A stretch of DNA of 64,000 nucleotides from an uncultured Chthonomonadaceae bacterium (lineage in GTDB: Bacteria; Armatimonadota; Chthonomonadetes; Chthonomonadales; Chthonomonadaceae), in assembly GCA_963835065.1 (NCBI GenBank), contig CAWIEK010000068.1, forward strand, positions 1 to 64,000, read 5' to 3'. The notes under the pieces were generated by a model. It worked only from the letters and a program-made list of their open reading frames with translations. It had not been told where the DNA came from and ran no database searches. Shown piece by piece: positions 1,855 through 54,240 of the stretch. How positions within the stretch are numbered: the first letter of the stretch is position 1; the number at the start of each line of letters is the position of its first letter. The position numbers were made by a program, and so were the translations under genes.

Positions 1855-2195
1855 AAAAGGACAGAAAAAAGTGCCAATTAGCGCGAAAAGAACGAACCTT
1901 TTGCCCAACGCAGCCGTCTAAACAGTAGAACAATGTCTACATACCAGATGTTAGACACACAGGAAGGGAGGTGCAAAGCTATGTTTCACCCCTCCCGTTC
2001 GCCCTGACGCCGCTGAGGTCACGACGCCTCACTCCTACAATCAGACACAACGAGACATCGGGCTGGAAGCGCTGTATTGCCAAGATTTCGACGATGACTC
2101 TACATATTCTTTCTTCTACCAACACTTTCCCGTCGTGCTTGCAGGACTTTCCATTGATAAAGGGCAGGCTTCCTGCTGGTTCGGGAGGAATTAAA
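1855..2195 (+). ncRNA. Dispersed structured RNA/micro-ORF element, copy 1
   Basis: GAACCT 1894-1899, N16, GTCTAA 1916-1921; SD GGAAGGGAGGTG; micro-ORF 1981-2007 MFHPSRSP*; 53-nt core 2044-2096 shared with three other copies. RNA status is inferred. Confidence 0.65.
1894..1921 (+). promoter_or_regulatory. ECF-sigma-type promoter GAACCT-N16-GTCTAA
   Basis: Both boxes and the 16-nt spacing conserved in all four copies while the spacer varies; resembles RpoE-class GAAC/TCTAA promoters. Confidence 0.7.
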
Positions 2196-2205
2196 TGTAC
2201 GGGAC

Positions 2206-4002
2206 CTAGCCGAGTTTAAGGACGGATAGGAACGCTTCCTGCGGGATTTCGATGCTGCCGACAGACTTCATGCGCTTTTTGCCTTCCTTCTGCTTTTCCA
2301 GCAGCTTGCGCTTGCGGGTGATGTCGCCGCCGTAGCACTTGGCAATCACGTTCTTGCGGAACGCCTTAACGGTTTCCGCGCTGATGATTTTGCCGCCTAT
2401 CGCCGCCTGTATCCGCACCTCGTACTGCTGGCGCGGAACCACTTCCTTTAGTTTTTCCACAATTAACTTGGCCCGCTCGTATGCCTTGTCGCGGTGCGTG
2501 ATAAATGAAAGCGCGTCTACCGGGTCGCCGTTCATCTGAATGTCAATCTTCACCAGTTTACTATCCCGATAGCCGCTCAACTCGTAATCGAAACTGGCGT
2601 AGCCTTTGGTGCGCGATTTCAACTGGTCGAAAAAGTCCATCAGGATTTCGGAAAGCGGGATTTTGTAGCGCAGCATCACGCGCTCCGGCGCGGGGTATTC
2701 CAGGCTGACAAACTCACCCCGCCGGTCACGGCACAGTTCCATAATCGTGCCGACATAATCTTTGGGCAAAATCAGCGTGGCGTCCACAAACGGCTCTTCC
2801 GTGAAATCAATCAGCGTCGGATTGGGCATATCAGCGGGGTTGTCCACGTCCATAATCTTGCCGTCCGTGCGATGCACCTTGTACACAACAGAGGGACTGG
2901 TCGCAATCAGGGATAAATCGAACTCGCGCTCCAATCGCTCCTGTATCACGTCCATGTGCAGCAGTCCGAGAAAGCCGCAGCGATAGCCGAAGCCCAACGC
3001 CGCCGAGGTTTCCGCCTCGAAACTTAAGGCCGCGTCGTTCAACTGCAATTTAGACAGGGCTTCGCGCAGTTCGGGATAATCCGCGCTGTCAATCGGATAC
3101 AGGCCGCAGAACACCATCGGCTTGGCTTCGCGGTACGTGCCCAGCAATTCTTTGGCGGGATGGGCCGCGTCCGTAATCGTGTCGCCGACATTCGCGTCGC
3201 CAATGGTCTTGATGCTTGCCGCCACATACCCGACTTCGCCCGTTCCAATCATTTGCCCCACGCGGCGTTCCGGGCCGAACGAGCCGAGTTCAATCACTTC
3301 AAACTCCTTGCCCGTCGCCATAAACCGGATTTTCTGCCCGCTTTTGATATGCCCGTCCACGACGCGCACATAGGAGATAACGCCCAGATACTGGTCGAAT
3401 TTGCTGTCGAAAATCAGGGCGCGAAGCGGGGCGTCGGGATTGCCCGAAGGCGGCGGAATTTTACGGACAACCTGCTCCAGAATGTCCACAATGCCGATCC
3501 CCGCTTTGGCGCTTGCCAGCACCGCGTCGCTTGCGTCCAGAGCCAGCACGTTTTCGATCTCTTCCCGAACGCGCTCCGGTTCGGCTGCGGGCAGATCAAT
3601 TTTGTTGATGACCGGGATCAGTTCCAGATTGTTCTGGTAGGCCAGATTGACGTTGGCGAGCGTTTGCGCTTCCACGCCCTGCGCCGCGTCCACAACCAGC
3701 AGCGCGCCTTCGCAGGCCGCTAAACTGCGCGACACTTCATAAGTAAAATCCACGTGGCCGGGCGTGTCTATCAGATTGAACTCGTACTCCTGTCCATCCA
3801 GCGCGATATAATGCAGGCGAATAGCGGTCATTTTGATGGTGATGCCCCGTTCGCGCTCCAAATCCATCGTGTCCAGAAGCTGCGCCTGCATGTCGCGCTT
3901 GGCGATGGCGTTGGTGGTTTCCAGAATACGGTCGGCAAGCGTGGACTTGCCATGATCAACGTGGGCAATGATGCAAAAATTTCGGATATGGTCTTGGTTC
4001 AT
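2206..4002 (-). CDS. lepA: Elongation factor 4 (LepA)
   Basis: [56 protein letters not shown]. Confidence 0.99.
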
Positions 4003-4154
4003 GTTCAGCTTTCAGCAGAATTCGCAAGCGCAGGACAAGCAGCGCGTTTCAGGCATGGATTCTCCCTGTATTATAGCATAGCCGACAAATTACAGGCGGA
4101 ACGCCGGTATGCGACATTCCGCTCGCGCGTATACTATTGTTTATAACGGCAAAC

Positions 4155-4658
4155 TCAAGACAGAGAAGCAAGAAAAGCGGGAAGGTCGGCAGGGGCAATT
4201 GTTTCGGGGTTGAGGGTTTTCAAACCTTCTGATTCGGCGGCGCGAAGCAGGCGATTATCGGCAGCAACCAGTACGCATATCGGCTCGTCTGCGGACACAA
4301 ACTCGGCGTAGCGCAGATAAGCGGCAAGGATCGCGGCATCGGTGGAATTGATATTATGGGCGTCTGATAGCGCGATCCCTGCAAGTATGTCTTCGTCAAG
4401 AGTGGACAGCAGGGTAAATCGGTTGCTGTTCAGAACGTCGTCTTCCAGCAACAGGCGCGCATCTGTGTAATCTTGCTGCGACAACTGGCGGTTGTTCCGT
4501 TTTCGACGCAGGATGGCGGCGGTTTCCGCGTAACAAATATAGGCTATCGCCATGTCAGGAACAGGTGTTAAGTCGAAAATAGCTTCAACAGTCAAATCGC
4601 CGGCTTCAGGAGCATACTTTTTGCCAAAACCGCTGGAATCCCACAGCAATACAGCCAT
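4155..4658 (-). CDS. VapC-like PIN toxin
   Basis: LLWDSSGFGKKY, AETAAILRRK and DAAILAA PIN motifs; directly downstream of a small gene. Confidence 0.8.
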   Translation of the reverse strand: MAVLLWDSSGFGKKYAPEAGDLTVEAIFDLTPVPDMAIAYICYAETAAILRRKRNNRQLSQQDYTDARLLLEDDVLNSNRFTLLSTLDEDILAGIALSDAHNINSTDAAILAAYLRYAEFVSADEPICVLVAADNRLLRAAESEGLKTLNPETIAPADLPAFLASLS

Positions 4659-4661
4659 CGT

Positions 4662-4955
4662 TTATTCCTCTTTGTTCTGCTCGTCCAGCTTGCTCTGTTC
4701 ATCCAGTTGGCGCATATACTCGTCCTGATCGTAATCATCGCCATAGCGCATGCGCAGCAATTCGCTGGTGAAGATTTTGTCTTCAGGACGAACGCCGTTG
4801 GCAATCATACGCTCTCTGAGTTGCGTTGTGGTGATTGTCGGCTTACCGGAAATACCTGCGCGGGCGTTGACTTCCCGCGCGATACGCCGTAGTTCCGCCT
4901 GCTTTTCTTCACTGGGAATCTGCGGCGATACTCTCTTTGTAGAAGAAGTAGTCAT
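4662..4955 (-). CDS. Putative antitoxin
   Basis: 97-aa ORF with acidic tail, 3 nt upstream of the PIN gene. Confidence 0.6.
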   Translation of the reverse strand: MTTSSTKRVSPQIPSEEKQAELRRIAREVNARAGISGKPTITTTQLRERMIANGVRPEDKIFTSELLRMRYGDDYDQDEYMRQLDEQSKLDEQNKEE

Positions 4956-5068
4956 TCTGTTTCTCCCTGTACTGCATCGGTCACAAGGGCGCGATATTGT
5001 ACGCTGTCGCCGATGTCGTGTTGTATTGTTATTATAGCACAGGACGAGCTTTAGGAAGCGGCGGCGTT

Positions 5069-5983
5069 TCAGGGCGTGGATTCGTGGGCGGGATGGAGAA
5101 GTTCGCGCGGGGCGGGGTCGGAACAGTCGTCAACGGAGCGCAACAGCCCCGCGCCCGTTTCCGGTTCCATTGCGCTTGCCCGGAGCAGGGTGTGGTTGGC
5201 GGTGTCGTAGACGGCGCGAGCTTCGAGCAGGGGCAGGCAATGCTGCGCGGCGCGTAAGACCTGCGGGTCTACGCGGGCGCGTCCGTTCCCGTTTGCCAGC
5301 CGCGTCACCGGGCCAATGGAACGGCCATCCCCTATTTTCTCCAAAGCCCCCAACAGCAAGACCACCAGGTCGGTGTTCACATCGTCGAGGGCGAGATGCA
5401 GGGATTGGCGGTGCGCGTCCGTGAACAGCACGGCATCAGCGGGTGTGAGCAAGGGCAGCAGTTCCTTCAAAGCGCGTTGTGGAATTCCCTGCATGTCGGC
5501 GTAACGCATCGCTTCCAACAGCGGGCCAATCGCGCGGACGTCCGATTCAGGAATGTTGGCGACCAGCACAGTCATTTGCCCGTGCAGTCCGCTTCCTATG
5601 CCCATCACGCCGACCGCACAGGCCGCCAGCCATTCAAACGGCGCAAGCAATGTGTCAATCAGCCCGCCATTGACCATCATTGCCACGCCCGCGACAAGCG
5701 CCGTCCCGCCCGTCAGCGCAAACGCGCGCAGGCAAAACTTACGCTGCCGCCACTTGCGCTTGAAGTCAATCAGCAGCCGGTTGAGCAGTTCCTGTTCCCG
5801 CTCCCATCGCGCCTGCTGCTGCTGAAGCGCCACGTGAGCCAGTATCGGCTCCGATTCCGCCTGTAATGGTTCCGCTTCCACGCGCTCAGAAGCATCATTC
5901 CGCTCACCCTGCAAGATATGCGCGAACACCTCCAAGTCTGCAGCGGTGACAGTCGGCGTGTCTTCCAAGATTATGTTCGGCAT
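5069..5983 (-). CDS. Membrane protein with HEAT-like repeats
   Basis: Two hydrophobic segments, then DVRAIGPLLEA and ALEKIGDGRSIGPV HEAT-like repeats. Confidence 0.7.
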   Translation of the reverse strand: MPNIILEDTPTVTAADLEVFAHILQGERNDASERVEAEPLQAESEPILAHVALQQQQARWEREQELLNRLLIDFKRKWRQRKFCLRAFALTGGTALVAGVAMMVNGGLIDTLLAPFEWLAACAVGVMGIGSGLHGQMTVLVANIPESDVRAIGPLLEAMRYADMQGIPQRALKELLPLLTPADAVLFTDAHRQSLHLALDDVNTDLVVLLLGALEKIGDGRSIGPVTRLANGNGRARVDPQVLRAAQHCLPLLEARAVYDTANHTLLRASAMEPETGAGLLRSVDDCSDPAPRELLHPAHESTP

Positions 5984-8683
5984 GTCTACTCCTCAAGCCG
6001 GTCGTTTCGCTTCTTCTGCCAGCCTCCCAACCCTTCTCAACCTGTTCATGCAGATGTTTCAAATAAGCGCGTTGGTTCGGAGGACGACCAACCTCAGAAG
6101 CGGCTTTATGCAAATGTCGCAGCGTTTCATCGTCACCAAGCTGCTGAAGAGCCTGCCCATACTGCCATGTTGACGTCAACTGATCTGCCGGAGTCTCCAA
6201 GACATACTGAAGATACTGACGCGCCAGCATGATGCGGCGGCGCTCCTTTATCGTTTCGTTCGCCGCGCCACGCACATTCGCTTCTCGGTCGTGCCGCGCC
6301 AGTTTGTAAAGCGCTTGGAACGCGGCCTCATCTGCAAGCCATGCCGCCGCTTCTATCCCGCATCCCCGCTCATGTACGTTTTCGCTGTCAAGCAGACGTT
6401 TCGCTTCCATACGAAGACGCGGCAGGTCAATTTCTGCCAGAGTGCGAGCCGCAATGCGTCGGATGTGGTAAACGCCGTCCGTCAGAAACTGCGCAAGTGT
6501 ATCCGCAGCCTCCGCAGCCTCCAATCCCCGGTAGGCTTTAACAACAGCCTCCCTTGCAGTGGCAGGCCAGTTGAAAACATCCTTAAACGGAAATTCTTGT
6601 ACAAACCGCTCAGGAGCAACCCGCCGCAATGTCCACAAAGTCTCTGTTTCGGCCTGAAAAGGTTTGTTGATAGGGTGTGCGCGTCTGCTCAGTGCGTCAA
6701 GGATTGCGGGTGAAGCGTTTTCTGCGCTTAACTGCGCGAACACCTGTATTGCTTCCCCATAACTCCTATTCTCGATAAGATCGCACACTGCCGAAGTAAA
6801 CTCTTCAGGATGGTTGCAAAACAGAAGCCCCAGGATGAAGGCTTCGCGGTCGGTTAAAGGGCGTGTCACCTTCCATGCAGTCTGTTCAGCAGACTCAAGA
6901 CCAAGTTCGTTTAACAAGTTATGGTGAGTATGTAGGGTTCCCCACCGCGCAAGAACTTCCATCGCTTCAACGGCGTTCCGCTCTGATCCACCTGCCAACT
7001 TCAGCAGCAATGCCTCTGTTCTTTCATCTTTATCAAAGCCGCCTAAAGCGGGAAGCAAATAATGCAGATAAAGAGGATCCTCTTGAAGCAGTCACGACAC
7101 AGCAAAGCAAACACTCGCTCACGATAAGGCGTAACCAGAGCGGGCGCTGTAAACATCACCTGCTGTAATGCGAACGCGCAGGAAATCCAACAATGCGGCA
7201 TTGCTGCTGGGCTTTGCTCCAAACAATCAATTAAGGGAGCAGCATCCTGCATTGTCAATACGCAGGCGATAAAGGCTTCCCCATGTTCTAATGGAGTCGT
7301 GGCGGCAATACTTACATCAGGTTTTCCATACTTAAAAGAAACCTGACTGTCTGTTAAAGCCTGAAATGCTTCTTTCGTGCCGATACTGCCAAGTGCCCGC
7401 AGAGCCGCTAAACCCGGCTCAGTATGTATCCCCCCCGGTTCGCGCCAGTCCGTGCGCTTAATGATATTGTGCAAATTTGGAACAGCTTCGGTAACGCGCA
7501 GGAAGCCAGCCAAGCGGCATATATCGGCAAGAGTAAAGGGACTGGTTTCGTTGAACGCTTCGACAAGCCACTGCCTTGCTTCCGACAAGTCAAGACGCAG
7601 GACAATGTTCCAGCTATGCTCCTTAATTAAAGTGAGTTGTGTCTGCCAAGCCCCTTTGTTATCAGTGTCTAAAACGGCATCCTGATGAAGACATTCAATT
7701 ACCTTGTTCCGCGTGTCAGCATCCGCACGGTTCAGGCTTGTGGACATTGCTGCAAGTTGCTGCGGTTGCTCCAGATCGCTGAGACGTAGATACGGATGGT
7801 AATGGTTACTCATCCGGCCCTGTTCACGTAAATGTTCCGGCGCGTCAGGCTCCAGGCGATGCAGGAAGAAATCTACTACGCGGCCATCATCTATTCCGCG
7901 AGTAATTTCTGACGCTAATTTAAGAGCATTGTAGAGAGCATCAACACCATTCTCCGATCTACCCGCATACTGAATTATCGTGTCCCACACGGCAGAGGCA
8001 ACTTCCGGGTGTGTCTGCGCTGTATCGGAAAGAACATACAACACAGTCTGAAGTTCGGTTTTCGTGTCCGACGAGAACTTGGCGCGAAGCAGGCAATCTT
8101 GAAAATATGGCAGCAGTTTCAAGGAGGCAAGGTGACTTCCACAACGCAGGACAAGTTCCGGTATAACGTCAACTTGCTCCAATACTTTCTGAATTGTCTC
8201 TTCGAGGAAAGCGCGGTCTGAATATCCAAGCCATGCCAGCCCCCACAAGGCGATATATTTGGTTTGCTCATCCGGCGGAGCGGTAACGAAGGCCAGAAGT
8301 TTGCGCTGCAACGCCTCATCCCGATAACCGATGAAGATGAACGTCCAGAGAACATTTTGCACCCGGATAGTGTCTGGTTTATCCAGTTCAGGAAGAAGGC
8401 GGCATATAACATCGTCACGCTTGTGTGGATTTTCCTTCAGCCAGCGTTTGAGCAAGCCATGAATGAAGTGACCCTCATAACCCGAACGTAAAGCACACTG
8501 CTCCAGCAGTTCGTTTTCAAAATCAGGGTACTCCAAATCCCATAGACGATCCAAGCCGGACGAAAGAACGCGCCAGCGCGTATCTTCGTCGTACTCGTCT
8601 GCCCTGTGAAGAAGCGTCAGCACTTCTTCCGGTTTTTTGGCTGCGCGTATTTCGTTGTGAATGTCAGACCATGTTTCGTTCAT
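5904..8683 (-). CDS. Large HEAT-repeat protein (~900 aa), split by an apparent frameshift near 7093; true stop probably near 5986
   Basis: ORFs 7043-8683 and 5904-7058 join by a one-base shift (..CRD / LLQEDPLYLHYLLPALGG..); HEAT motifs LAALRALGSIGTKEA, YHIRRIAARTLAEI, DREANVRGAA. Confidence 0.65.
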
Positions 8684-10758: not shown

Positions 10759-10845
10759 CCTGCTCTCCCCATTGTATACGACATAAATTCTACGTCTGAA
10801 TGGTAAATCCTGCAAACAGAGAAAGGCATTGGCAAGAAAAACAGA

Positions 10846-10881
10846 GAACGGCTTGAACGAGTGTTCCCGTTCAAGCCGTTC
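10846..10881. repeat. Perfect 14-bp inverted repeat with 8-nt loop
   Basis: GAACGGCTTGAACG-AGTGTTCC-CGTTCAAGCCGTTC. Confidence 0.85.
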
Positions 10882-10929
10882 CTCTCAACCCTCAACTTCC
10901 ACCCCTTAACTTCGTAAAGTCTATATCCG

Positions 10930-11270
10930 ACAAAAAACCCAGCAAAAAAGATAAAAAAAGAGCAAAAAACGCGAACCCTTTGCCCAATACAGCCGTCTAA
11001 ACAGTAGATCAACGTCTACTATTCAAATGTTAGACACCGGAAGGGAGGTGCCAGTCCTATGTACCCACACCCCCGTTCGCCCTGACGCTGCTGAGGCCAT
11101 GACGCCTCTCTTCTACAACTTGACACAACGAGACATCGGGCTGGAAGCGCTGTATTGCCAAGATTTCGACGATGACTCTACATATCCTTTTTCTGCCTAC
11201 CCGTTTCCCAACGCTACCAGAACTTCCGCTTGGCAAAAGTCGAGCTTCCCGCCGGTTCGGGAAGTTAAAG
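10930..11270 (+). ncRNA. Dispersed structured RNA/micro-ORF element, copy 2
   Basis: GAACCC 10973-10978, N16, GTCTAA 10995-11000; micro-ORF 11059-11085 MYPHPRSP*; core 11122-11174; 3' hairpin CTTCCCG-CCGGTT-CGGGAAG. Confidence 0.65.
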
Positions 11271-11333
11271 GTTCACAAACGATTAGTCAAAGCGCTAATC
11301 CACTCTCACTCTCCACTCTTCACTCTCACTTGA

Positions 11334-12296: not shown

Positions 12297-12334
12297 ATCC
12301 GTTCTCCTCTGGCAATGTGAATACGACGCTGAAA

Positions 12335-14145: not shown

Positions 14146-14184
14146 GTACTTCAATCAAAATTAAAAACCAGAATTTTTGTCGTA

Positions 14185-14850: not shown

Positions 14851-14971
14851 AGGTGTCAGGTTTCAGGTATCAGGTGTCAGGAAAAGCCATTCTGCTCACA
14901 TGGCAATTAATGTCAGAAGCGAGTAGGAATAGATGTTTTCCCTGACCCCTGATCCCTGAAACCTGACCCCT
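14851..14971. repeat. Inverted heptamer-repeat hairpin element (TCAGGTN arms)
   Basis: AGGTGTC-type tandem arm with complementary CCTGA arm around a ~58-nt spacer. Confidence 0.8.
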
Positions 14972-38771: not shown

Positions 38772-39107
38772 ATGACAATTACACTGGACTTACCCCCGGA
38801 GTTGGAAGGGCAAATACAGCAGGTGGCGCGGGCACAGGGCAAGGATGTGGCTGCCTTCCTGCTTGACAGCATCCGTCAGCGCTTGCGCCATGACGTACTG
38901 CCCGAAGCGGATGCGCGTCTGCTTCAGATAATCAATGCCCCGATTGCTCCAGCGAGGGATAGATTTCCAGCCCCGAAGCAAGCGCCCCCTACGTTCCCCA
39001 AGACTCCAACAGCAACCATCCCACTAAAACAATCCCGCAAAAAAGACAGAAAAAAAGAGCAAAACAATGCGAAAAAAGCGAACCCTTTGCTCAACTCAGC
39101 CGTCTAA
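38772..39107 (+). pseudogene. RHH-like antitoxin gene whose 3' part runs into element copy 3
   Basis: MTITLDLPPELEGQIQQVARAQGKDV..LLQIIN, then read-through of A-tract DNA; its stop is the TAA of the element's -10 box. Confidence 0.55.
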
Positions 39108-39437
39108 ATAGCAGTACAAACGTCTACTACACAAACACAAAGGCTGAACGTTGGTAGTTCCTATCAACTATCAACTACACTAACAGGAAGGGAGGTGCAT
39201 GAGAATGTCCCTACACCCCTCCCGCCCGCCTTGACGCTGCTGCGAGGTCACGACGCCTCTCTTCTACAATCTGACACAACGAGACATCGGGCTGGAAGCG
39301 CTGCATTGCCAAGATTTCGACGATGCCTCTACATATCCTTTTTTCTGACTGCTCTTTTTTCATCTGCCGCCTGTCCAATGCACTTTCAAGACTCCCGTTG
39401 GCAAAGGCCGGAATTCCCGCTGGTTCGTGAAGTTATA
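39015..39437 (+). ncRNA. Dispersed structured RNA/micro-ORF element, copy 3
   Basis: GAACCC 39080-39085, N16, GTCTAA 39102-39107; micro-ORF 39205-39234 MSLHPSRPP*; core with one substitution; extra insert shared with copy 4. Confidence 0.65.
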
Positions 39438-39510
39438 GATTTATGGACTTTTTTATTCTCGCAAAGATGGGAAGACCGCTAACCTCTGTAGAAACGGAGT
39501 AGAACGAATT

Positions 39511-39869: not shown

Positions 39870-41552
<1,683 letters not shown>

Positions 41553-43061: not shown

Positions 43062-43075
43062 AATCACTCCGTTCA

Positions 43076-43191
43076 AGTAGTCAGTAGTCAGTAGTCAGTA
43101 GTCAGTAGAAGAACCCGCTTCTGCAATTCGTCATTGTCGCGCAAAGAGTGAACAGACAGGCATTTCTACTGACTACTGACTACTGACTACT
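43076..43191. repeat. Inverted heptamer-repeat hairpin element (AGTAGTC arms)
   Basis: (AGTAGTC)4 ... (GACTACT)3. Confidence 0.85.
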
Positions 43192-43702: not shown

Positions 43703-43708
43703 GGTCGT

Positions 43709-43830
43709 AGGGATCAGGGTTCAGTGATCAGGGTCAGGGGTCAGGTTGTAAGATCGTAGCATCAAGTTGGATGCTCTTATGTCTTTTCTCTTGCGCATCT
43801 CCTGACCACTGATCCCTGATCACTGACCAC
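43709..43830. repeat. Inverted heptamer-repeat hairpin element (TCAGGGN arms)
   Basis: TCAGGG tandem arm and CCTGA/CACTGA complementary arm. Confidence 0.75.
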
Positions 43831-44275: not shown

Positions 44276-44286
44276 AACTTCTCCAG

Positions 44287-44413
44287 AGGTTTCAGGTGTC
44301 AGGTGCAGGTGTCAGGGTAGAAAACACGCCCCTAATTCTTTGCTGCCTTGCATATCATCGCAAACACTGTAGAAGTGTCGTCCCTAACACCTGAAACCTG
44401 AAACCTGACCCCT
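44287..44413. repeat. Inverted heptamer-repeat hairpin element
   Basis: AGGTTTCAGGTGTCAGG ... CCTGAAACCTGAAACCTGA. Confidence 0.8.
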
Positions 44414-45440: not shown

Positions 45441-45689
45441 GGGCGCGTTCCTCCACTAAGGCTGAATTTGGTGGCTGGCAGTTGGTAATTGGTGGCAGGA
45501 AGCCAGTGCGCAGGCCGTTCCGCCGCCTGCAAGTATAGCCGAGGACGCGAGGTTTGTCAAGACTCAAAAGCAAGCCTGCGGAACGTAATTGCCTTCATTC
45601 CCGAAACATATTGTATTTTTCGTCTGTGGGCAGTATCATAGTGTCGAAAGTATCCGTTCCAAAGCATTTACTGCAAAGCGAGGACGTTC

Positions 45690-46742: not shown

Positions 46743-46791
46743 TTTTCCTCAATGAATCTCTTTCGTAAGCCTGTTCGGTTCGGTAGGCTTT

Positions 46792-47781
46792 GTGTTGTTC
46801 AAGAGGATTAATGAAAACAGTTTGATAGCTGCGAAGGCAAGGCCAATGCCGGAACGCGCCGTACAATCCAAAACACCGCCAACCAAAACACAACAAAAAA
46901 CGCGCGCAGCCCGCTTGTCGGTGGGCTGCAACGCGCTTTTGGTGCTGCTTAAACTCGGTATCGGGCTGTGGATCGGGTCGGTGGGCGTTTTGTCGGAAGC
47001 CATGCACTCGGCCACAGATTTGATGGCCGCAAGCATCGCGTTTTTATCCGTGCGCGCCTCAGATATTCCGCCCGACGACGATCACCCGTATGGACACGGT
47101 AAAATCGAAAGCATTTCCGGGCTTGCCGAAGCCCTCTTGATTGTTGTGGCCGCCATTCTCATCATTTATGAAGCGGCCAGTAAACTGCGCAATCCCGAAC
47201 CCGGCCTGCCGCCCCTCGGCGCGGGATTGGCCGTAATGGTCTTTTCCGCAACCGTCAACGTGTTTCTGTCCCGGCACCTGCTGCGCGTGGCGCGGCAAAC
47301 CGACTCGCTCGCTCTGGAAGCCGACGCGAAGCATTTGCGCACCGATGTTGTCACGTCCGTCGGCGTCGCAGTGGGACTATTGCTCGCGCATCTGACGGGC
47401 AGGGCGTGGTTCGATCCTCTGACCGCGCTGTTTGTGTCCCTGCTGATTTTATACACAGGCTATAAATTGGGACACGAGGCCATGCACCCCCTGCTTGACG
47501 CCCGCCTGCCCGTAGAGGAAGAGGCCGTCATACAAGAAGTTTTGGAAACGCACCCCAAAGTGCTGAGTTACCACAAGCTGCGGACGCGCAAATCCGGTTC
47601 GCAGCGCCACATAGATGTTCATGTCCTGATGGACGACAACAGCACCCTGCTGGAAGCGCATGACATCAGCGAGGAACTGGAAGACCACATACGCGCCGCC
47701 CTCGCCGACACGCATATCAACATCCACATCGAACCCTACCACGCCGAAATGCGCCATCAGCAGGAAGCGCACGGGGAGTAG
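46792..47781 (+). CDS. Cation diffusion facilitator (FieF-like)
   Basis: EAMHSATD, PPDDDHPYGHGKIE, HLRTD, LRTRKSG, IHIEP. Confidence 0.95.
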   Translation: MLFKRINENSLIAAKARPMPERAVQSKTPPTKTQQKTRAARLSVGCNALLVLLKLGIGLWIGSVGVLSEAMHSATDLMAASIAFLSVRASDIPPDDDHPYGHGKIESISGLAEALLIVVAAILIIYEAASKLRNPEPGLPPLGAGLAVMVFSATVNVFLSRHLLRVARQTDSLALEADAKHLRTDVVTSVGVAVGLLLAHLTGRAWFDPLTALFVSLLILYTGYKLGHEAMHPLLDARLPVEEEAVIQEVLETHPKVLSYHKLRTRKSGSQRHIDVHVLMDDNSTLLEAHDISEELEDHIRAALADTHINIHIEPYHAEMRHQQEAHGE

Positions 47782-47880
47782 GTATCAGGTGTCAGGTGTC
47801 AGGTGCAACATTGCTGTTACACTTAATAGAGTGGGCAAATGGCATTTCCCTGAAACCTGACACCTGACACCTGATACCTA
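47780..47880. repeat. Inverted heptamer-repeat hairpin element between convergent genes
   Basis: AGGTATCAGGTGTCAGGTGTCAGG ... CCTGACACCTGACACCTGATACCT. Confidence 0.85.
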
Positions 47881-49140
47881 GCCAACTGTCATCGTCGAAT
47901 ACACCGCGTTGAACACTTCTTTGGGCGTGGTCAGGCCCGCGAAGATTTTTTCGTAGCCGTCCTGGAGCATGGTACGCATTTTGACCGTGCCGAACGCATA
48001 GTTTTTTACTTCCTCGACGGTTGCGTGCCGCGCAATCAGTTCGCGCAGACCTGCCGTGCTGACCAGCAACTCGAACAATCCCAAGCGTCCCTTGAAGCCG
48101 GTTTGTCGGCAGTTTTCGCAGCCTTTGCCCATGTAGAACGAGCGTCCTGCCATCTGCGCGGGGTCCAGTCCGATTTCGATCAGTTCGTCGGGCGGCGGCT
48201 GAAACTGCGTTTTGCAGTTGACGCAAATGGTGCGGACAAGCCGCTGCGCCATGACCGCCTGGAGCGTGGAAGCGATCAGGTAAGGCTCCGCGCCCATGTC
48301 CATCATGCGCCCGACGGTTTCAATGGCGTTGTTGGTGTGCAGGGAGGAGAGTACAAGGTGTCCGGTCAGGCTGGCCTGTATGCCGATACCCAGCGATTCC
48401 GGGTCGCGCATTTCGCCCACGAGCATGACGTCCGGGTCCTGGCGCAGGAACGAGCGCATGACGCGGGGAAACGTCATCTTTTCCGTCACCTGCACCTGCA
48501 AAACGTGGTCGCTGAATTCGTACTCAACCGGGTCTTCGACGGTCACGATGTTGCGCTTTTCCCGATCCAGTTTGTTCAGGCTGGCGTACAGCGTGGAGGT
48601 TTTGCCGCTTCCCGTCGGGCCGGTGACAAGGATCAGGCCGTAGGAGGACTGCACGGACGTTGACCATGCCTTCAGCACATCGGGCGGCATTCCCAACTTT
48701 TCCAGTTCCACTTTTGCGCCCATCGGGTCGAGAATACGCATCACGATCTTCTCGCCGTTCAAGCCGGGCAGCACGGACATACGCGCGCTGAGTCGGCGCG
48801 GGCCGTATTCCATATCCAGACGCCCGTCCTGCGGTTCGCGCCGTTCGTCAATGTGCATCCCCGCCGCCAGTTTAAGCCGCGCCAGCACGTTGGGAACCAG
48901 GTCCGCCCGCATTTGCCCCACGTCCTGCATCACGCCGTCAATGCGGTAGCGCACCAGCAGGCGGCTGCGCTCCGGCTGCAAATGCACGTCGGACGCGCCC
49001 ACATCCAGCGCCTTGCGCAGCATGTAATCCGTTTGCGTGACGGCTTCGGTCAGTTCGCCGCCCATTTCCCGCGCCACGCCATCCTGACGCATAATCAGCT
49101 TAAACGACTGCGGCCCGGTTCGCGCCCCTACTTGTGTCAT
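47878..49140 (-). CDS. GspE/PilB-family secretion ATPase
   Basis: ASDVHL, RYRIDG, GPTGSGKTS, TVEDPVEY, LRQDPDV..GEMRD, GHLVLSSLH; ATG at 49140 with AAGGAG. Confidence 0.95.
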   Translation of the reverse strand: MTQVGARTGPQSFKLIMRQDGVAREMGGELTEAVTQTDYMLRKALDVGASDVHLQPERSRLLVRYRIDGVMQDVGQMRADLVPNVLARLKLAAGMHIDERREPQDGRLDMEYGPRRLSARMSVLPGLNGEKIVMRILDPMGAKVELEKLGMPPDVLKAWSTSVQSSYGLILVTGPTGSGKTSTLYASLNKLDREKRNIVTVEDPVEYEFSDHVLQVQVTEKMTFPRVMRSFLRQDPDVMLVGEMRDPESLGIGIQASLTGHLVLSSLHTNNAIETVGRMMDMGAEPYLIASTLQAVMAQRLVRTICVNCKTQFQPPPDELIEIGLDPAQMAGRSFYMGKGCENCRQTGFKGRLGLFELLVSTAGLRELIARHATVEEVKNYAFGTVKMRTMLQDGYEKIFAGLTTPKEVFNAVYSTMTVG

Positions 49141-49670
49141 TGGTGTTGCTCCTTTGTCGGATTGGGAGCAGGAGCCTTGCTGAGTTAGCCCCGTATCTTC
49201 GTCGCGCCGTTCAATCCGCTTACGCTGAACCTGGCAATGACCGCGCTCGCTTTGATTGGCCTGATAACGGCGCATGATCTGCCGACGGCGCGCATGTGCC
49301 TGCGTCGGCGGCAGGAGAAACGCGCATGACGGCTGCCGGTTCAACCGATGCTGCAACCGCAACATTTACCTCTATTTATCAGCAGGCAATGGGAGCGGAT
49401 TTTTGCCGCCTGCATCGGAAAATTCAGCAGCGTTTCGGCTTCAGCAGCAGGGATGAAACCGCTGCTGTGGGAACAGGGACGATGGAGCGCGTCTGGCATG
49501 GGCGTTTGTACACGCTGCCGTTTTTATGTGTGGGTACCTGGCGGCGCATCATGTTCCCCGAACACGGAGTAAACATTCCCTTTACCATCCAAAACTATGC
49601 GTATCTGATAGTTACGGACGCGAAACGGTGACATGGGTACGCGCGTTCCAGACTATTGGTGTTGCTCCTT
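49139..49670 (+). mobile_element. 500-bp insertion of gene fragments (DoxX-like tail, DUF4166-like head) bounded by a 16-bp direct repeat
   Basis: ATTGGTGTTGCTCCTT at 49139-49154 and 49655-49670; inside TSIYQQAMGADF.RLH..IQQRF..MFPE.G.NIPFTI and LNLAMTALALIG..LP.A..C.RR. Confidence 0.65.
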
Positions 49671-49691
49671 AGAAAGTGGTTGGTAATTACA

Positions 49692-52370
49692 TTATAACGT
49701 GGTTGTAGCGTTAATCTGCCGCTTACGGATAAGAACGGATGCTGATTTTTCCTGTGTTGTTGGCGTTGGGGGCGGCGGCAATTGGAGGCGCAGCGCTTTT
49801 TGCACCAGTTCGGGACGCTGGAACTCTTTGGCGTAGTTGTCGCCGGTTTTCAGTTCGCCGCCCACGTTCCAGCGCAGGTAGGAAGCGATGTTGGCGGAGC
49901 CGTCGTAATGGCCCGCAGCGGTTTGCGCGATCCAGGCGAAGGGACGCGCGGCGAGGGCTTTGTCGTCCGGTGTGGCTGCGCCCGGTTTCTGCTCGTCGGG
50001 CGTGAGCGCGGGGAAGGCCGTCAGGCTTGCCAGCAGCGTTCCCGCGCGCGGGTCATGGATGACGAGCGATTCACCCGATGCCGTGAGCGGACGCCGGAAC
50101 GCGGACGGCAGGATGGCTAACTGCTCCAGCGACGTAATTGCAACCCGCTTGCCGACTGCAATATCCCATATAATAACCTGATTGCTTGTCGTTCGCGCGG
50201 CAAACCATTTGCTGTCATTGGAAAACGTCAGGCCGGAGGGATTGAAATTGTAATCCTGCGTGGCTTCGCTGTTGGGCGTTACCCCGGTTAAGATGCCCAC
50301 GATCTGCCCCGATTGGACGTTCCAGATACGCATTTTTTGCACCCCCCGCGTCAGGATGTATTTGGCGTCGGGGGAAAGCGTGATGCCGAACAGGTACTCC
50401 CCGTCCGTAATCTTCAAGTTGGATTTCAGCGCGCCTGTCGTCACGTCGTAAAACTGCACTTCGCGGTCCAGCATCGCCGCCAAAGTGGTCCCGTCCGCCG
50501 ACAAATGGATGCCGTCCTGGTAGCGTCCCGGCGCAACCGTCGCCCGCAACTGCCCGCCCGGCACGTCGTACAATTGAATCGCGCTGTTGTTCAGGACGAG
50601 AAACGTTTTGTTGTCGGGCGTGAAGCGGGCGATGCGTTCGCGCTCCAGTCCCGTGTTGTTGAACTGGCAGTTCAAGGTTCCGACAATCGTTCCCGTCGCC
50701 ACATCCACGAGAGATGTTTTTTCGCCGCTCACGGCCAGCAGTTTGCCGTCGGGCGAGAAGATGATGCGATTAGCGTTGGTGGTTCCATTCACGTTGGGCG
50801 AGTACAAGCGCCTCTTTTGCCTGGTTTGCAGGTCGTACACATCCACGCTGCCGCTGTGGGGAACCACAAACGCAAGGGTTTTGCCGTCCGGCGCGAACAC
50901 AGGTTCGGTTTGCAGATAGCGGTCGCGCGGCCCATACTGCTCATTGGTTTGGAAGTTGTCGCGCAATTGCCCCGTCAGCGTGTCCCAGATTTGCAGGTAG
51001 CCGTTGAAGGCAACACCGGCGGCGAGCGCTCCATCCGGCGAGTACGAAAAATAGTACAGCGCGCTGGACGCCTGGAACGCGGCAACCTGCTTCCCGCTCT
51101 GGCTGTTCCACACGCGCAGTCCACCGTCGCCGTCGCCGCCCACGAGCAGGGGATCGTTGGGCGCGAACAGCAGCATGTCCGTTTCCCCGCCCCCCTCGGT
51201 CATCACGCGCGGCTTGCCCGTCGCCACATCCCACAACTGAACGCCCTTCTGGTTTTCGTGCCAGTTGGGAGCGACGACGGCCAGCGTTTGCCCCGTTCGG
51301 TCAAAGCGCAGGGCGCGAACGCTGATTTCCGGCTTGCCCGGCAGGGTTGCCAGGCGCTTGCCGGTCGCCACGTCCCACACAAACACATCGCTCGGCGCTT
51401 CCTTGCTGCTTCTGTTGCTCCCTGTCGCCAGTTTCTTGCCGTCCGGCGAAAAGGCCAGGGACGTGACGGGCGAAGTATTGCCCTTCAGGGGTGGCAGCAG
51501 TTTGCCCGTTTTCAAATTCCATGCCCGCGCCCCGCTGTCGTTGTTGGCAAGGGCAAGCGCGGAGCTGTCCGGCGCAAACACAACGTCGGCGTTGTAGCCC
51601 TGATCGGAGCGGAGTTCAAACGGCTGGAGCGTCAATTTGGAAAGACCGGTTTCCGCGTCCACCAGTTGAAACGTCACCAATTTATACCGCCGGGGCGAGT
51701 TTGCGCCGTTGTTGTCGGTATCAATCTCTTCCTGCTCCTCGCGCTGAAACAGCAGGGTCTTGCCGTCGGGCAGAAACGCGAGCGGGCGTCCGTACTTTTG
51801 CTGTGTTTCCGGCTTCCACGCATGGGTGTCGGTCAGCGTACCCGTCCGCATGTCCCACATCTGCACCTGATTTTGGAACGTGTACGTCGTGACCATGTCG
51901 CCGCTGACGGCAAACGTGGCGTAACTGGAAGGCATGACCTGCGTTTGGCCTATCGGCTGCCCCGTTTCGGTGTTCCAAAAGCGCAATTGCCCGGAACTTT
52001 GCGTTACCAGCGTCTTGCCGCCGGCGGCAAACGCAATGCGCGAAACAGGCGCGCCCTGCGCCAGATTCAGCAGCAGTTGCCCGCTTTTGAGGTCCCACAA
52101 CCGCGCCGTGCCGTCCTGGCTGGCCGTTGCCAGCAGCGCTTTCCCCGGCGCAAAGACCATACTCAAAATGCGGTTCGAATGGCCTTGCTGGAGGACGGGG
52201 AGGGGGTTGGGAGTTGATAGTTGATAGTTGATAGTTGATAGTTGGCCGCTCGTTGCTTGCGCGACTATCGTTTGTCCTTTATTCCGGTTTTCGGCGTATT
52301 GCGCGAATGCCCTCTGAGTATTGGGCAAAAGCATTGTCATCATCAGCCATGCGTATTGTTGTCTCATCAT
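49692..52370 (-). CDS. Secreted WD40-repeat protein
   Basis: Signal-like N-terminus; many FSPDG/WD repeats. Confidence 0.9.
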   Translation of the reverse strand: MMRQQYAWLMMTMLLPNTQRAFAQYAENRNKGQTIVAQATSGQLSTINYQLSTPNPLPVLQQGHSNRILSMVFAPGKALLATASQDGTARLWDLKSGQLLLNLAQGAPVSRIAFAAGGKTLVTQSSGQLRFWNTETGQPIGQTQVMPSSYATFAVSGDMVTTYTFQNQVQMWDMRTGTLTDTHAWKPETQQKYGRPLAFLPDGKTLLFQREEQEEIDTDNNGANSPRRYKLVTFQLVDAETGLSKLTLQPFELRSDQGYNADVVFAPDSSALALANNDSGARAWNLKTGKLLPPLKGNTSPVTSLAFSPDGKKLATGSNRSSKEAPSDVFVWDVATGKRLATLPGKPEISVRALRFDRTGQTLAVVAPNWHENQKGVQLWDVATGKPRVMTEGGGETDMLLFAPNDPLLVGGDGDGGLRVWNSQSGKQVAAFQASSALYYFSYSPDGALAAGVAFNGYLQIWDTLTGQLRDNFQTNEQYGPRDRYLQTEPVFAPDGKTLAFVVPHSGSVDVYDLQTRQKRRLYSPNVNGTTNANRIIFSPDGKLLAVSGEKTSLVDVATGTIVGTLNCQFNNTGLERERIARFTPDNKTFLVLNNSAIQLYDVPGGQLRATVAPGRYQDGIHLSADGTTLAAMLDREVQFYDVTTGALKSNLKITDGEYLFGITLSPDAKYILTRGVQKMRIWNVQSGQIVGILTGVTPNSEATQDYNFNPSGLTFSNDSKWFAARTTSNQVIIWDIAVGKRVAITSLEQLAILPSAFRRPLTASGESLVIHDPRAGTLLASLTAFPALTPDEQKPGAATPDDKALAARPFAWIAQTAAGHYDGSANIASYLRWNVGGELKTGDNYAKEFQRPELVQKALRLQLPPPPTPTTQEKSASVLIRKRQINATTTL

Positions 52371-52411
52371 AATTCCTCGTCCTATCAACTATCAACTTTT
52401 TACTATCAACT
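52213..52411. repeat. GTTGATA/CTATCAA inverted heptamer tracts; one arm lies inside the WD40 CDS
   Basis: (GTTGATA)4 near 52213-52242, CTATCAA tract near 52382-52411. Confidence 0.8.
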
Positions 52412-53430
52412 ACAATGCCTCATTCTCTTCCTTCGGCGGGCGCAGCATCAGGGCGCGAATTACGTCCGGGCGCGTGGCGTCCCTCGAAGAGAATACGGTA
52501 CAGGGCGGCGCACAGGGGCATTTCGATTGCAGTGCGCGCGGCCAATTCGCACAAGACGCGGGTTGTCGGGACGCCCTCGGCCACCTGTCCCAATTCGGCC
52601 AGAATAGCGTCCAATTGCCGGCCCTGTCCCAGAGCATGGCCTACGCGGTAATTGCGCGATAGGTGGCTGGCCCCGGTTGCCACCAGATCGCCGAAGCCGG
52701 ACAGGCCGCGAAATGTTTCCGCCTGCGCGCCCTGCGCCACGCCCAATCGAATGGCTTCCGTCAGGCCCCGCGTCATCAGAGCGGCTTTGGAATTGTCGCC
52801 AAACCCCAGCCCGTCGCACACGCCCGCGCCAATCGCAATCACGTTTTTAATCGCGCCGCCGAGTTCCACGCCGATAACGTCCTGCCCGGTGTACACGCGA
52901 AAGGTCGGCGCGGCCTGCTGCGAAAACAAGCGCTGCGCCCGTCTTGCGGCTTCCTTATTTATAGACGCGGCGACACTGGCGGATGGCATCCCCTGCGCCA
53001 CTTCAATCGCTAAATTCGGGCCGGAAAGCGCGACGATGCGTTCGGGCGCGTCGGGCAGAACTTCGGCAAGAACCTGACTCATGCGCAGTCCCGTGCCTTC
53101 TTCCAGCCCTTTGGCGGCGGAAAGCAGCAGGGCGTGGGGCGGCAAAAAACCGCGCGCCTGCTCCGCAATGCCGCGCATGGCTCCACTGGGCACGGCGAAA
53201 ACAACGGCTTCCACATTATGGCAGGCTTCGGCAAGATCGGCAACAGGCGTAATCGCCTCGTCAAGCCGAAAGCCGGGCAGGTACGCGCGGTTTTCACGCG
53301 CGGCTTGCAGCAGTGCGATGAGGGCGGGACTGCGCGCCCACAGCCGTACCTGCTGCCGATTGGCAGCCAGCAGAACCGCAAGCGCCGTGCCCCAACTCCC
53401 CGCGCCCAGCACGGCGACCGGCGCGGAAAT
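52410..53430 (-). CDS. gpsA: NAD(P)H-dependent glycerol-3-phosphate dehydrogenase (apparent frameshift near 3' end; start uncertain)
   Basis: VLGAGSWGTALA, LSGPNLA, GGAIKNVIAI, GDLVAT..SRN, AEGV; tail DVIRALMLRPPKEE in another frame after a C-run. Confidence 0.93.
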
Positions 53431-53675
53431 CAGGCTGGTTGTTGGTATGTTAGTCTCTGTTTTGATACGTTTGTTCCGGTACGTTTTGCGGCTACATTCA
53501 GGGATACGCTTCTTCCTGTGGCAAATTCGCTATTGTGGAACGCGACTCCTGCACAATGTTGCTTTTATAACCTGTCCGGTTCGCGGTACACGTTCAATGT
53601 TATGTTGAATATGCCATAATCATAAATCATGCGCGGTTGCCGCAAAGGAAGACGTTTAGCCTGGAGAAAGTCACA

Positions 53676-53870
53676 ATGGATGCCGCTGTCAAAGCCCGGT
53701 TAGAGGCCGCCGGATTTCGGGAAACGACGGTTCAGGAACTTCTCGGTCTGACGCCGGAAGAAAACGAACTGGTTGAAACGCGCCAATGCGAGGCGCGTTT
53801 GATTCGAGAATTACGTCAGACGCATCATCTAACTCAAGAAGCGTTAGCGAAGCGTTTAGGCTCAGATTAA
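53676..53870 (+). pseudogene. XRE/HigA-like antitoxin truncated inside the HTH
   Basis: LEAAGF..TVQELLGLTPEE..LTQEALAKRLGSD* stops before the recognition helix, at the end of element copy 4. Confidence 0.65.
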
Positions 53871-54240
53871 GGCAATGTCTCCAAAACGGAGAAATATGTA
53901 GAGTCATCGTCGAAATCTTGGCAATACAGCGCTTCCAGCCCGATGTCTCGTTGTGTCAAATTGTAGGAGTGAGGCGTCGTGACCTCGCAAAGCGTCAGGG
54001 CGCACGGGAGGGGTGAAACATAGGCCTGCACCTCCCTTCTGGGTTAGGGTTCTAGGGTTTTAGGTTGTTAGTTGTTAGGTTGTTAGTTGATAGGAACTGC
54101 GAACGTTCAGCCTTTGTGTCTGGATAGTAGACACTTGTGCTATTTAGACAGGAGGAATGGGGAAAAGGTTCGCTGTTTTCGGATTGTTTGGCTATTTTTT
54201 TCTGCTTCTTTTTTGGTGTGATTTTTTGCGGGAGGGTTGC
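53871..54240 (-). ncRNA. Dispersed structured RNA/micro-ORF element, copy 4
   Basis: Minus-strand GAACCT 54171-54166, N16, GTCTAA 54149-54144; micro-ORF 54021-53995 MFHPSRAP*; identical 53-nt core; heptamer-expanded insert. Confidence 0.65.

Follow-up and report, generated by a model that had tools for sequence, protein, structure and literature searches.

Multicopy small RNAs under alternative sigma factors, such as the sigma-E RNAs MicA and RybB, CcsR1-4 and Qrr, form groups of several paralogous RNAs, some with a small ORF. The unit described here resembles them in its alternative-sigma promoter, its paralogous RNAs and its small ORF, but occurs in tens to hundreds of dispersed copies, combines an internal SD, an ORF and a fixed hairpin, and lacks Rfam similarity. 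Insertion sequences of the ISAs1 family have CAGGG ends and 8-10 bp duplications. The 19-bp terminal inverted repeat (TIR) of some copies is identical to that of two full-length PF13808 elements in the congener G002 (L128 and L129, with a matching target duplication found at neither) and of a transposase remnant in the genome of the window, G000 (G000:C48:46848); the cargo of the unit, however, is unrelated to the interior of these insertion sequences, with no similarity found between them, and PF13808 has zero matches in G000 and the other congener, G001. Known arrest peptides, TnaC among them, are longer than the 8-11 residues encoded by the unit, which carries no localisation signal and no regulated downstream gene, occurs in 162 copies and continues into a conserved RNA domain.

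Prokaryotic MITEs carrying promoters or sRNAs (Correia/CREE, Coxiella QMITE1/2 and MITEAba12) are described in PMC10969869 as short, TIR-bounded, non-autonomous and intergenic, with target duplication, an internal promoter and a borrowed transposase, and those copies of the unit that have both TIRs are alike in kind. The unit differs from the elements as presented there in that both TIRs accompany a small minority of copies, conservation favours the cargo over the decaying ends, TIR-less cargo occurs in the most distant congener, the promoter is ECF-type instead of sigma-70, and a micro-ORF is conserved. Ribosome termination structures (RTS), as described in PMC7518266, place a stable structure right behind the stop codon, where the edge of a terminating ribosome would lie; in the unit the corresponding hairpin is conserved in sequence and loop, keeps a 7-nt offset that is fixed, and lies inside a stand-alone RNA gene.

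Across the copies, sequence comparison shows drift in the DNA that separates the parts, whereas each part is itself conserved: the promoter boxes, the SD, the reading frame with its Pro-stop, the distance from stop to hairpin, the hairpin and the core. We interpret the unit, with confidence slightly short of even, as a genus-specific, high-copy sRNA gene whose RNA would be designed for loading a ribosome and keeping it in place by a Pro-stop pause and a hairpin shield, and would act by dosage.

Organisation and spread of the unit

The window, that is, the whole stretch of DNA analysed (64,000 nucleotides), contains all four copies of the original prediction, with the order of parts given there and the coordinates of Table 1. 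Copies 1, 2 and 4 indeed share an identical 53-nt core, from which copy 3 departs by a single T>C change. The expectation of many more copies genome-wide was borne out, as G000 (assembly 92% complete) holds 162 core copies, far beyond chance, at an average of one unit per 49 kb, and nhmmer found no extra core copy in G000 with E better than 0.77; two congeners of the same genus hold 47 and 13, so that the description as a multicopy family applies across all three. The copy density of the 64-kb window is about three times the genome average.

A covariance model detected the unit in 0/39 other family genomes and 0/150 phylum-sample genomes, some of them incomplete (with scoring limited to 85 and 23 candidates in each genome), and it is apparently confined to one genus among the genomes searched. 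Among the motif matches listed, those elsewhere (28 metagenome, 8 other-taxon) all scored 21 bits or less, versus 74-137 bits for full copies, and viral contigs gave zero exact motif matches. Consistent with the earlier view that this is no known RNA family, Rfam 15 gave 0 matches in the window at the gathering threshold and a best E of 0.89 (copy 1) in E-value mode. ARAGORN likewise reported 0, the tmRNA of G000 being a separate single gene, and no account of the element was found in the literature searched, the coverage of which was partial. Likenesses to twister, HDV, hammerhead, c-di-GMP-I and dif were considered and dropped.

Table 1. Positions of the parts of the four copies in the window.
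Copy	Feature	Position	Strand	Remark
1	Upstream A-tracts	1854..1893	+	Possibly UP-element-like or bending
1	ECF-type promoter: -35 GAACC + T-tract, -10 GTCTAA	1894..1921	+	
1	Second motif GTCTAC	1935-1940	+	
1	Extended SD	1963..1973	+	Complementary to G000 16S 3' end, one G-U
1	Micro-ORF MFHPSRSP-stop	1981..2007	+	R-x-P-stop
1	Hairpin H1	2015..2030	+	7 nt past stop codon
1	Structured core	2052..2106	+	Outer stem, inner UGRAA/UUUCG stem, near-invariant inner loop; end is invariant CAUA, then pyrimidine tail
2	Promoter GAAC..GTCTAA	10973..11000	+	
2	SD	11040-11050	+	
2	Micro-ORF MYPHPRSP-stop	11059-11085	+	
2	Hairpin H1	11093-11108	+	
2	Core	11130-11184	+	
3	Promoter	39080..39107	+	Followed by longer leader with heptamer repeats
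3	SD	39187-39197	+	
3	Micro-ORF MSLHPSRPP-stop	39205-39234	+	
3	Hairpin H1 + core	39244..39335	+	9-nt spacer; core 39281-39335
4	Remnant ISAs1-type terminal inverted repeat	54286..54304	-	3 mismatches
4	Promoter GAAC..GTCTAA	54171-54144	-	
4	SD	54039-54029	-	
4	Micro-ORF MFHPSRAP-stop	54021-53995	-	
4	Hairpin H1 + core	53895..53986	-	8-nt spacer; core 53949-53895

Promoter

A -35 box AAC with a T-tract and a GTC-type -10 box occur in 135/162 copies, 21 or 22 nt apart in 123 of these 135, and both boxes are conserved while the spacer between them varies. The boxes fit the pattern tgaAACntttt / CGTC given for ECF promoters in PMC5758882, and this signature with its near-fixed spacing upholds the ECF-type promoter signature originally proposed. 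The motif fits several ECF groups, the RpoE class and the stress induction first suggested being putative, and G000 contains 57 sigma region-2 matches. A promoter matrix trained on the copies found 154 strong sites of G000 within copies and 15 outside, with 9 in the control. In G001 and G002, differing upstream promoter-like sequences are fused to the same ORF-plus-RNA module, which favours the ribosome-holding reading. An intrinsic terminator was not found at copy 1, which counts against it.

Micro-ORF, stop codon and spacer

The 11-nt SD precedes an ORF that is in frame with an ATG in 155/160 copies, with lengths of 24, 27, 30 or 33 nt, and this maintained frame argues that the micro-ORF is probably translated, as had been suggested. 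The last codon is Pro in 162/162 G000 copies (CCC 144, CCT 15, CCG 3), a count that weighs less for ribosome holding because the search for stops there took a Pro-like pattern as its anchor and tolerated one mismatch; in the relatives, where the stop was located independently of the preceding codon, it is Pro in 56/58. The background is 490/5861 genes, called with a rough dicodon model made for this analysis. The third-last residue is R in 151, H in 6 and L in 5 of the 162 copies, and [RH]xP-stop ends 45/5861 genes. At the sequence level, a RAPP-like feature is thus present as a conserved C-terminal R/H-x-P-stop motif. The second-last codon is almost always NCG, so the motif may be partly constrained at the nucleotide level, again counting against the ribosome-holding reading, as does the shortness of the peptide beside known arrest peptides.

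Stop codons interchange among TGA, TAA and TAG, with TAA in 6/162 copies of G000 and 31/58 of the relatives. Because TAA stops occur and the frame beyond the stop is not kept, read-through at selenocysteine (bacterial SECIS) and a +1 frameshift into the open core frame were rejected. The spacer from stop to hairpin is 7 nt in 157/162 copies of G000 and 54/58 of the relatives while its sequence varies; copies 3 and 4 of the window are two of the five exceptions. The distance from hairpin to core is 13, 14, 15 and 16 nt in 9, 132, 8 and 13 copies. Occlusion of the SD by the ORF was weakly above that of shuffled ORFs (0.80 versus 0.72) and was dropped as a function for this weak excess.

RNA structure

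The fold evidence supports a structured RNA, as first read, on the plus strand. Paired cells reach 91.7% against 40-51% for slid partners, double changes number 25 against 11.7 in shuffles (0/500 shuffles reach this value), and one-sided changes in stems are G-U on the plus strand. Against the ribosome-holding reading, shuffles do as well as the real alignment on two of the five covariation measures (199/500 and 244/500), and the remaining ones are inflated by kinship among copies. The small hairpin has the reported U-G pair in copies 1, 3 and 4 and C-G in copy 2. The varying base of the long stem, by contrast, had been taken as unpaired and is an A-U pair in 42/51 genus-wide sequences; the loose part of this stem is its middle, where one pair is open in 38/51. 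Folding energy is ordinary (z 0.46), which argues against a ribosome-holding RNA.

The promoter signature matching PMC5758882, the near-invariant loop, which may bind a protein, and the MITE-derived sRNAs of Coxiella described in PMC10969869 are consistent with a conventional ECF-driven sRNA family acting by base-pairing or as a protein sponge, whose micro-ORF and RTS-type hairpin would do no more than stabilise the 5' end while MITE capture and recombination amplify the gene. Such a family would not need the invariant Pro-stop, the R/H at -3 or the exact 7-nt spacer, and its copy number would lie far above that of known sRNA families. Moreover, the invariant 15-mer has only five one-mismatch matches outside copies on either strand, hence no evident long target set. 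We therefore hold this explanation to be improbable.

Transposon ends and route of spread

About 24 of 221 copies lie in a MITE of ~460 bp with both ISAs1-type 19-bp inverted repeats (up to 6 mismatches), and 10-bp target duplications with 9-10/10 identity flank 10/221 copies. TIR matches number 41 genome-wide, versus 3 for a reversed control. A minority of copies is thereby shown, at the level of sequence, to have spread as a passenger in an ISAs1-type MITE. The mobility in the original proposal of a mobile RNA element accordingly stands for this subfamily, but the RNA route does not, as spread is DNA-borne and the unit extends to the upstream side of the predicted start. The ends are ragged in about 85% of copies, a TIR is absent from all 12 copies examined in G001, and in the window copies 1-3 have no TIR and copy 4 has a remnant for which neither a partner end nor a target duplication was found. 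A generic search for other TIR and target-duplication pairs returned 31 where controls averaged 25, and other such families for the TIR-less copies were dropped, none being above control.

Among 15 MITE copies, pairwise differences are 0.04 in the -35, 0.00 in the -10, 0.01 (0.012) in the SD, 0.05 in the hairpin and 0.013 in the inner core, versus 0.30 in the promoter spacer, 0.19 in the linker and 0.18/0.26 in the TIRs. Unlike in a typical MITE, the ends are here less well conserved than the interior; the TIRs drift while the -10, SD and core are fixed (0-1%), so that conservation falls on the cargo. A plain MITE or IS remnant without function, kept uniform by gene conversion, would account for TIRs identical to those of a full ISAs1-family element in G002 and for the ordinary folding energy. 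It is nonetheless largely refuted and highly improbable, given the alternation of conserved and variable blocks at a 6-10 bp scale, the upkeep of reading frame, synonymous codons for Pro, exchange among stops and compensatory pairing, the cargo unlike the IS interior, and the TIR-less copies examined in G001.

Proven transposition of a subfamily, the ragged ends of the majority, rapid turnover of sites, and 13, 47 and 162 copies within one genus among those searched would also suit a selfish element, in which RNA and micro-ORF would serve the spread or persistence of the element itself as an addiction module or as RNA for some mobilising protein. That reading is quite unlikely, as the MITE copies keep their cargo while the transposase ends decay, the unit has no toxin-sized ORF, and viral contigs gave no exact motif match. 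With the promoter located upstream of the predicted start, an RNA intermediate would leave it behind. A retron-type RT common to the three genomes (in G000 at G000:C50:52482-53912, ~11 kb from the nearest copy) had no nhmmer match to the unit nearby, and a retron/msDNA-like (msr-msd) origin was rejected since no unit-like sequence lies beside it.

Genomic placement and neighbouring genes

The copies are over-dispersed. In G000, 1/105 gaps is below 8 kb against 17.7 expected (1000 placements; 0.1th percentile 8) and 10 are below 15 kb against 32.1 expected; in G002, 0/36 are below 13 kb against 3.3 expected (P 0.024, the threshold having been picked after looking). Genes on the promoter side appear foreign-looking. 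Their codon use is less typical (0.325 versus 0.406; n=152, p=5.5e-8), 30/60 versus 13/60 lack a Pfam match, although upstream proteins are shorter and so have a lower Pfam hit rate, and defence/TA-type families, sorted by eye, number 9 versus 2. A copy shares its place with one in G000 at 14/54 congener sites with a mappable flank.

These observations would be explained if each copy acted in cis as a boundary or switch at a foreign/core junction, with pausing on the micro-ORF gating read-through or antisense into the neighbour, or with the unit organising a chromosomal domain; local action would also account for selection on every copy. Against this, the downstream gene lies on the opposite strand in 98/155 cases and the downstream families are unrelated, with no common class; at 40/54 sites the copy has no counterpart in G000, and G002 lacks the unit at lepA, prs and aspS. 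Recombinational loss of close repeats can also give the spacing, and insertion preference the polarity. We hold a cis role to be unlikely. Upstream of aspS in G002, the orthologous element-free site has both flanks contiguous and a short direct repeat, possibly the footprint of an excision. A leader, riboswitch or leader-peptide attenuator of downstream genes was rejected, as orientation and mixed gene classes do not fit.

Proposed action of the RNA

In the ribosome-holding reading, an ECF-type sigma would transcribe an RNA of ~190-270 nt from all copies together, and a ribosome would bind the 11-nt SD, translate 8-11 codons and terminate slowly at R/H-x-Pro-stop, the peptide being a pausing device and not a product. 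NSP-stop and NAP-stop peptides stall when their stop codon occupies the A site, and RAPP, HAPP and LPPP motifs arrest, as reported in PMC10987492; most natural RAPP-like sequences tested there gave no efficient arrest, which tells against this step. The hairpin 7 nt past the stop would sit at the mRNA entry channel and block 3' trimming, rescue and onward scanning. According to PMC8012679, cleavage in the A site depends on earlier 3'-5' trimming, and the channel shields 12-15 nt past the P site. RTS hairpins behind stops are, as PMC7518266 describes them, common and generic (18-65% of genes), a further point against. The core may form the effector surface, binding ribosome or protein, and the RNA-ribosome complex would act in trans through dosage, its likeliest effect being to titrate ribosomes or a translation factor upon sigma induction. 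Pure dosage does not by itself explain even spacing and neighbour polarity.

A bolder form, which we regard as conceivable but doubtful, is a new class of RNA gene, a ribosome-trapping decoy mRNA. About 160 evenly spaced copies under one ECF sigma would combine Pro-stop pause, entry-channel hairpin and docking domain to park ribosomes and throttle translation in dormancy or defence, with MITE capture tuning copy number.

If the RNA holds ribosomes, it would be an RNA-based translation throttle, a counterpart of the hibernation factors made of protein, and making it would be the purpose of about 90% of the strong sites that one promoter class has in G000. The vehicle, a MITE, is of known kind while the cargo matches no family tested, giving a bacterial MITE that carries a selected RNA gene. 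The arrangement raises the question of why such repeats sit evenly spaced and polarised at foreign/core boundaries. The 220 natural variants form, in effect, a mutational scan covering the Pro-stop, the 7-nt spacer and the geometry of the hairpin. The strongest signals, namely Pro-stop, fixed 7-nt spacer, transposon ends, even spacing and neighbour polarity, are additions to the first reading of this DNA.

Distribution of the element

The positions and order of parts of the four window copies, each combining an ECF-type promoter, an SD, a micro-ORF, a hairpin (H1) and a structured core RNA, were borne out on re-examination, as was the original prediction of many more copies genome-wide. A 66-nt core located 162 copies in the 8.0-Mb source genome (G000), and a profile search with filters off returned the same 162, the next best match being no better than E 0.77. 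The original reading did not recognise the element as tRNA, tmRNA, SRP, 6S or a known riboswitch, and the Rfam check agreed: nothing in the window reached a gathering score, and the best match for copy 1 was E 0.89. The element fits neither any Rfam family nor an attenuator. A covariance model trained on 51 copies, with 85 and 23 candidates scored per genome in the family and phylum sets, was positive in 3 of 42 family genomes, all of one genus (G000 and the congeners G002, 47 copies, and G001, 13 copies), and found no copies in a sample of 150 other genomes of the phylum. In the genome collection, the named records with many motif matches were Chthonomonadaceae among the matches listed. The 28 metagenome and 8 other-taxon matches reached at most 21 bits versus 74-137 for full copies, and viral contigs gave no match. 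A literature search of limited depth found no earlier report of the element, and MITE-borne promoters and sRNAs are described in PMC10969869; the MITE vehicle is known in kind, and its cargo, the promoter-ORF-RNA unit, matches none of the families tested.

Promoter

The sequence signature of an ECF-type promoter was confirmed, its AAC/T-tract and GTC boxes fitting the consensus tgaAACntttt / CGTC given in PMC5758882. A -35 AAC plus T-tract accompanies a -10 GTC in 135 of 162 copies, with an AAC-to-GTC distance of 21 or 22 nt in 123. A promoter matrix identified 154 sites inside copies, a circular count given its training on copy promoters, with 15 outside them and 9 in the reversed sequence. 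G000 contains 57 sigma region-2 matches, and subfamilies in G002 and G001 have other promoter-like sequences fused to the same ORF-plus-RNA module. Five G001 loci (L022, L024, L026, L028, L032) have in common an extended 5' region, in which a promoter-like motif of another type, an additional hairpin and an NrdR-box-like word occur, and their ORFs have non-ATG starts.

Micro-ORF and stop codon context

Selection acts on the micro-ORF. Its start codon is in frame with the stop in 155 of the 160 ATG-bearing G000 copies (ATG is absent from 2 of 162), with lengths of 24, 27, 30 or 33 nt, and the final codon is Pro in 162/162 (CCC 144, CCT 15, CCG 3). Because this search relied on a Pro-like pattern (one mismatch tolerated), the stop was re-located in 58 congener copies by hairpin distance only, giving Pro before the stop in 56, with all four Pro codons used. 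For comparison, Pro is the last residue in 490 of the 5861 called genes, with an [RH]-x-Pro ending in 45. The third-last position holds Arg in 151, His in 6 and Leu in 5 G000 copies, and Arg in 50, Leu in 7 and Gly in 1 of the relatives. Stops are TGA (156) and TAA (6) in G000, and TAA (31), TGA (26) and TAG (1) in relatives; this exchange excludes a selenocysteine/SECIS reading. The stop-to-hairpin spacer is 7 nt in 157/162 G000 and 54/58 related copies, its sequence being variable, and the SD can pair with the 3' end of G000's own 16S over 11 nt with one G-U. Since N-terminal residues vary freely and the hairpin-to-core distance (13-16 nt) maintains no reading frame, the effector does not look to be the peptide or a product of read-through.

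The reading we favour, at somewhat less than even odds, is of an RNA that an alternative sigma would transcribe from the copies, and that would load a ribosome and hold it at the stop codon, acting like a Pro-stop arrest leader with a ribosome termination structure (RTS). A hairpin that begins 10 nt beyond the P-site codon would lie at the entry-channel edge where 3'-5' trimming ends. PMC10987492 reports that NSP-stop and NAP-stop peptides stall while the stop codon occupies the A site, and that RAPP, HAPP and LPPP motifs cause arrest, most of the natural RAPP-like sequences tested there being without efficient arrest. A-site cleavage of stalled complexes requires prior 3'-5' trimming, which proceeds as far as the entry channel, 12-15 nt beyond the P site (PMC8012679). 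Structure behind stop codons is a common generic feature (PMC7518266), so hairpin geometry alone is no proof of pausing. That some 160 copies together supply a ribosome-parking decoy RNA is a more doubtful proposal.

RNA structure

In the model, H1 is followed by a linker rich in A and C, an outer stem whose middle is loose, an inner UGRAA/UUUCG stem, a closing stem of 2 bp around a loop that hardly varies, and a CAUA that never does. The expectation of a structured RNA with compensatory variation held in part: pairing across 51 sequences reached 91.7% of cells versus 40-51% with slid partners, and both-side changes occupied 25 cells versus 11.7 in shuffles (0/500 reach), measures inflated by the kinship of the sequences, whereas the numbers of covarying pairs and pair types did not exceed shuffles (199/500, 244/500) and copy 1 had an ordinary folding energy (z 0.46). 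One-sided changes in stems give G-U on the + strand. A conventional sRNA, which would not require the constant Pro-stop context, appears very unlikely. Intergenic inverted arrays of 7-9-mer tandem repeats, with long hairpin arms, also occur in the window (Table), and a similar style is seen in G001, G002 and within the leaders of many copies.

Mobility and retention of the cargo

The idea of a mobile element applies to a subfamily whose ends are sharply defined, about 365 nt upstream of the core and 97 nt downstream of it, and are formed by 19-bp terminal inverted repeats (TIRs; 41 matches versus 3 in the reversed control); both TIRs occur in only 24 of 221 copies, and a target duplication at 9-10/10 identity is kept in 10. 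Most copies have ragged ends, and a minority behave as MITE passengers; window copy 4 retains one TIR remnant. The same TIR flanks two full-length PF13808 (ISAs1-family) elements in G002 (L128, L129), for which a matching target duplication was sought and none found, and a transposase remnant (G000:C48:46848); the IS interior is dissimilar to the cargo. Upstream of aspS, the G002 flanks are contiguous without the unit and carry a short direct repeat, perhaps left by excision, and G002 also lacks the unit at the sites where window copies 1 and 2 lie (lepA and prs). G000 has a copy at the same place in 14 of 54 congener loci with mappable flanks (60 examined; one of the 54 a chance match), so that inheritance and turnover both occur. 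The TIR is absent from 12/12 G001 copies examined and most TIR copies cluster in a single branch of a tree with weak support, from which we infer that the gene probably predates its capture by the MITE.

Pairwise comparison of 15 MITE copies gave mean differences of 0.18 and 0.26 for the TIRs, 0.22 for the subterminal parts, 0.30 for the promoter spacer, 0.18 for the 7-nt spacer and 0.19 for the linker, but of 0.04 for the -35, 0.00 for the -10, 0.01 for the SD, 0.09 for the ORF, 0.05 for the hairpin and 0.013 for the inner core. The transposon parts are decaying while expression signals and RNA are retained, and the scale of this alternation is not one that gene conversion would produce by itself. 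A typical MITE fails as a description, the ends being less conserved than the interior, and a dead MITE is scarcely credible; a selfish element needing its own RNA is distinctly unlikely.

Two tiny TIR-bounded elements are too short for cargo (Table). In two MITE copies (G000:C2:238651 and C11:2338), the left flank of one matches the right flank of the other over 9 nt, the pattern expected from recombination between two copies. Several TIR copies, e.g. C48:43614, C54:125905 and L105, lie by eye tens of bases upstream of the next gene's sigma-70-like boxes, hinting at a transposase target preference.

Chromosomal placement

Copies avoid one another, with 1 of 105 gaps below 8 kb (a tandem duplication) versus 17.7 expected and 10 below 15 kb versus 32.1, and weakly so in G002. 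Codon use is less typical in the genes on the promoter side (n=152, p=5.5e-8). Around 60 random copies, 30 upstream versus 13 downstream neighbours had no Pfam match, under a length limit of 450 residues and with upstream proteins shorter, and 9 versus 2 were defence/TA-like by the author's own sorting; the downstream gene is convergent in 98/155. All gene calls come from a rough custom model. Even spacing and neighbour polarity, which a ribosome held at the stop does not explain, are the main support for a cis boundary or switch, overall an unlikely explanation.

Copy 3 lies about 0.9 kb past the dnaA 3' end amid small toxin-antitoxin-like ORFs. Adjoining copy 1 is an 87% identical duplicated start of a small antitoxin-like ORF, and its site in G001 holds, by eye, a two-gene toxin-antitoxin-like pair in place of the element. 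A second repeat has 42 genomic copies, 22 directly downstream of an element copy, and a palindromic repeat (153 copies) often adjoins the element.

Reverse transcriptases and an insertion sequence

A retron RNA was rejected as an identity: a retron-type RT is common to the three genomes without a link to the element. It lies behind a conserved neighbouring gene, presumably SWIM/BRCT-like, and no Rfam RNA was found beside it. A second reverse transcriptase adjoins a Cas1-like gene (by eye), which has a paralogue. Unrelated to the element, a 975-bp IS5-like element (by eye), with several G000 copies >99% identical, is a recently active IS.

Coordinates of features in the window and in the compared genomes
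Feature	Sequence	Position
Inverted tandem-repeat array	window	14851-14971
Inverted tandem-repeat array	window	43083-43191
Inverted tandem-repeat array	window	47779-47880
Inverted tandem-repeat array	window	52212-52411
Inverted tandem-repeat array	window	62792-62931
Second repeat	window	~2175-2210
Second repeat	window	11250-11275
Second repeat	window	39420-39445
Duplicated ORF start	window	1-151 and 1700-1850
dnaA	window	40203-41552 (-)
TIR-bounded element, 134 bp	G002:C9	64631-64764
TIR-bounded element, 77 bp	G001:C2	5687760-5687836
Retron-type RT and neighbour	G000:C50	52482-55980
Retron-type RT and neighbour	L184, L185, L186	
Second RT and Cas1-like gene	G000:C49	681660-685905
Cas1-like paralogue	C44	541643
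IS5-like	G000:C24	151614
IS5-like	G000:C31	13506
IS5-like	G000:C41	136798
IS5-like	G000:C51	56363
IS5-like	G000:C53	53234
IS5-like	G000:C71	35698
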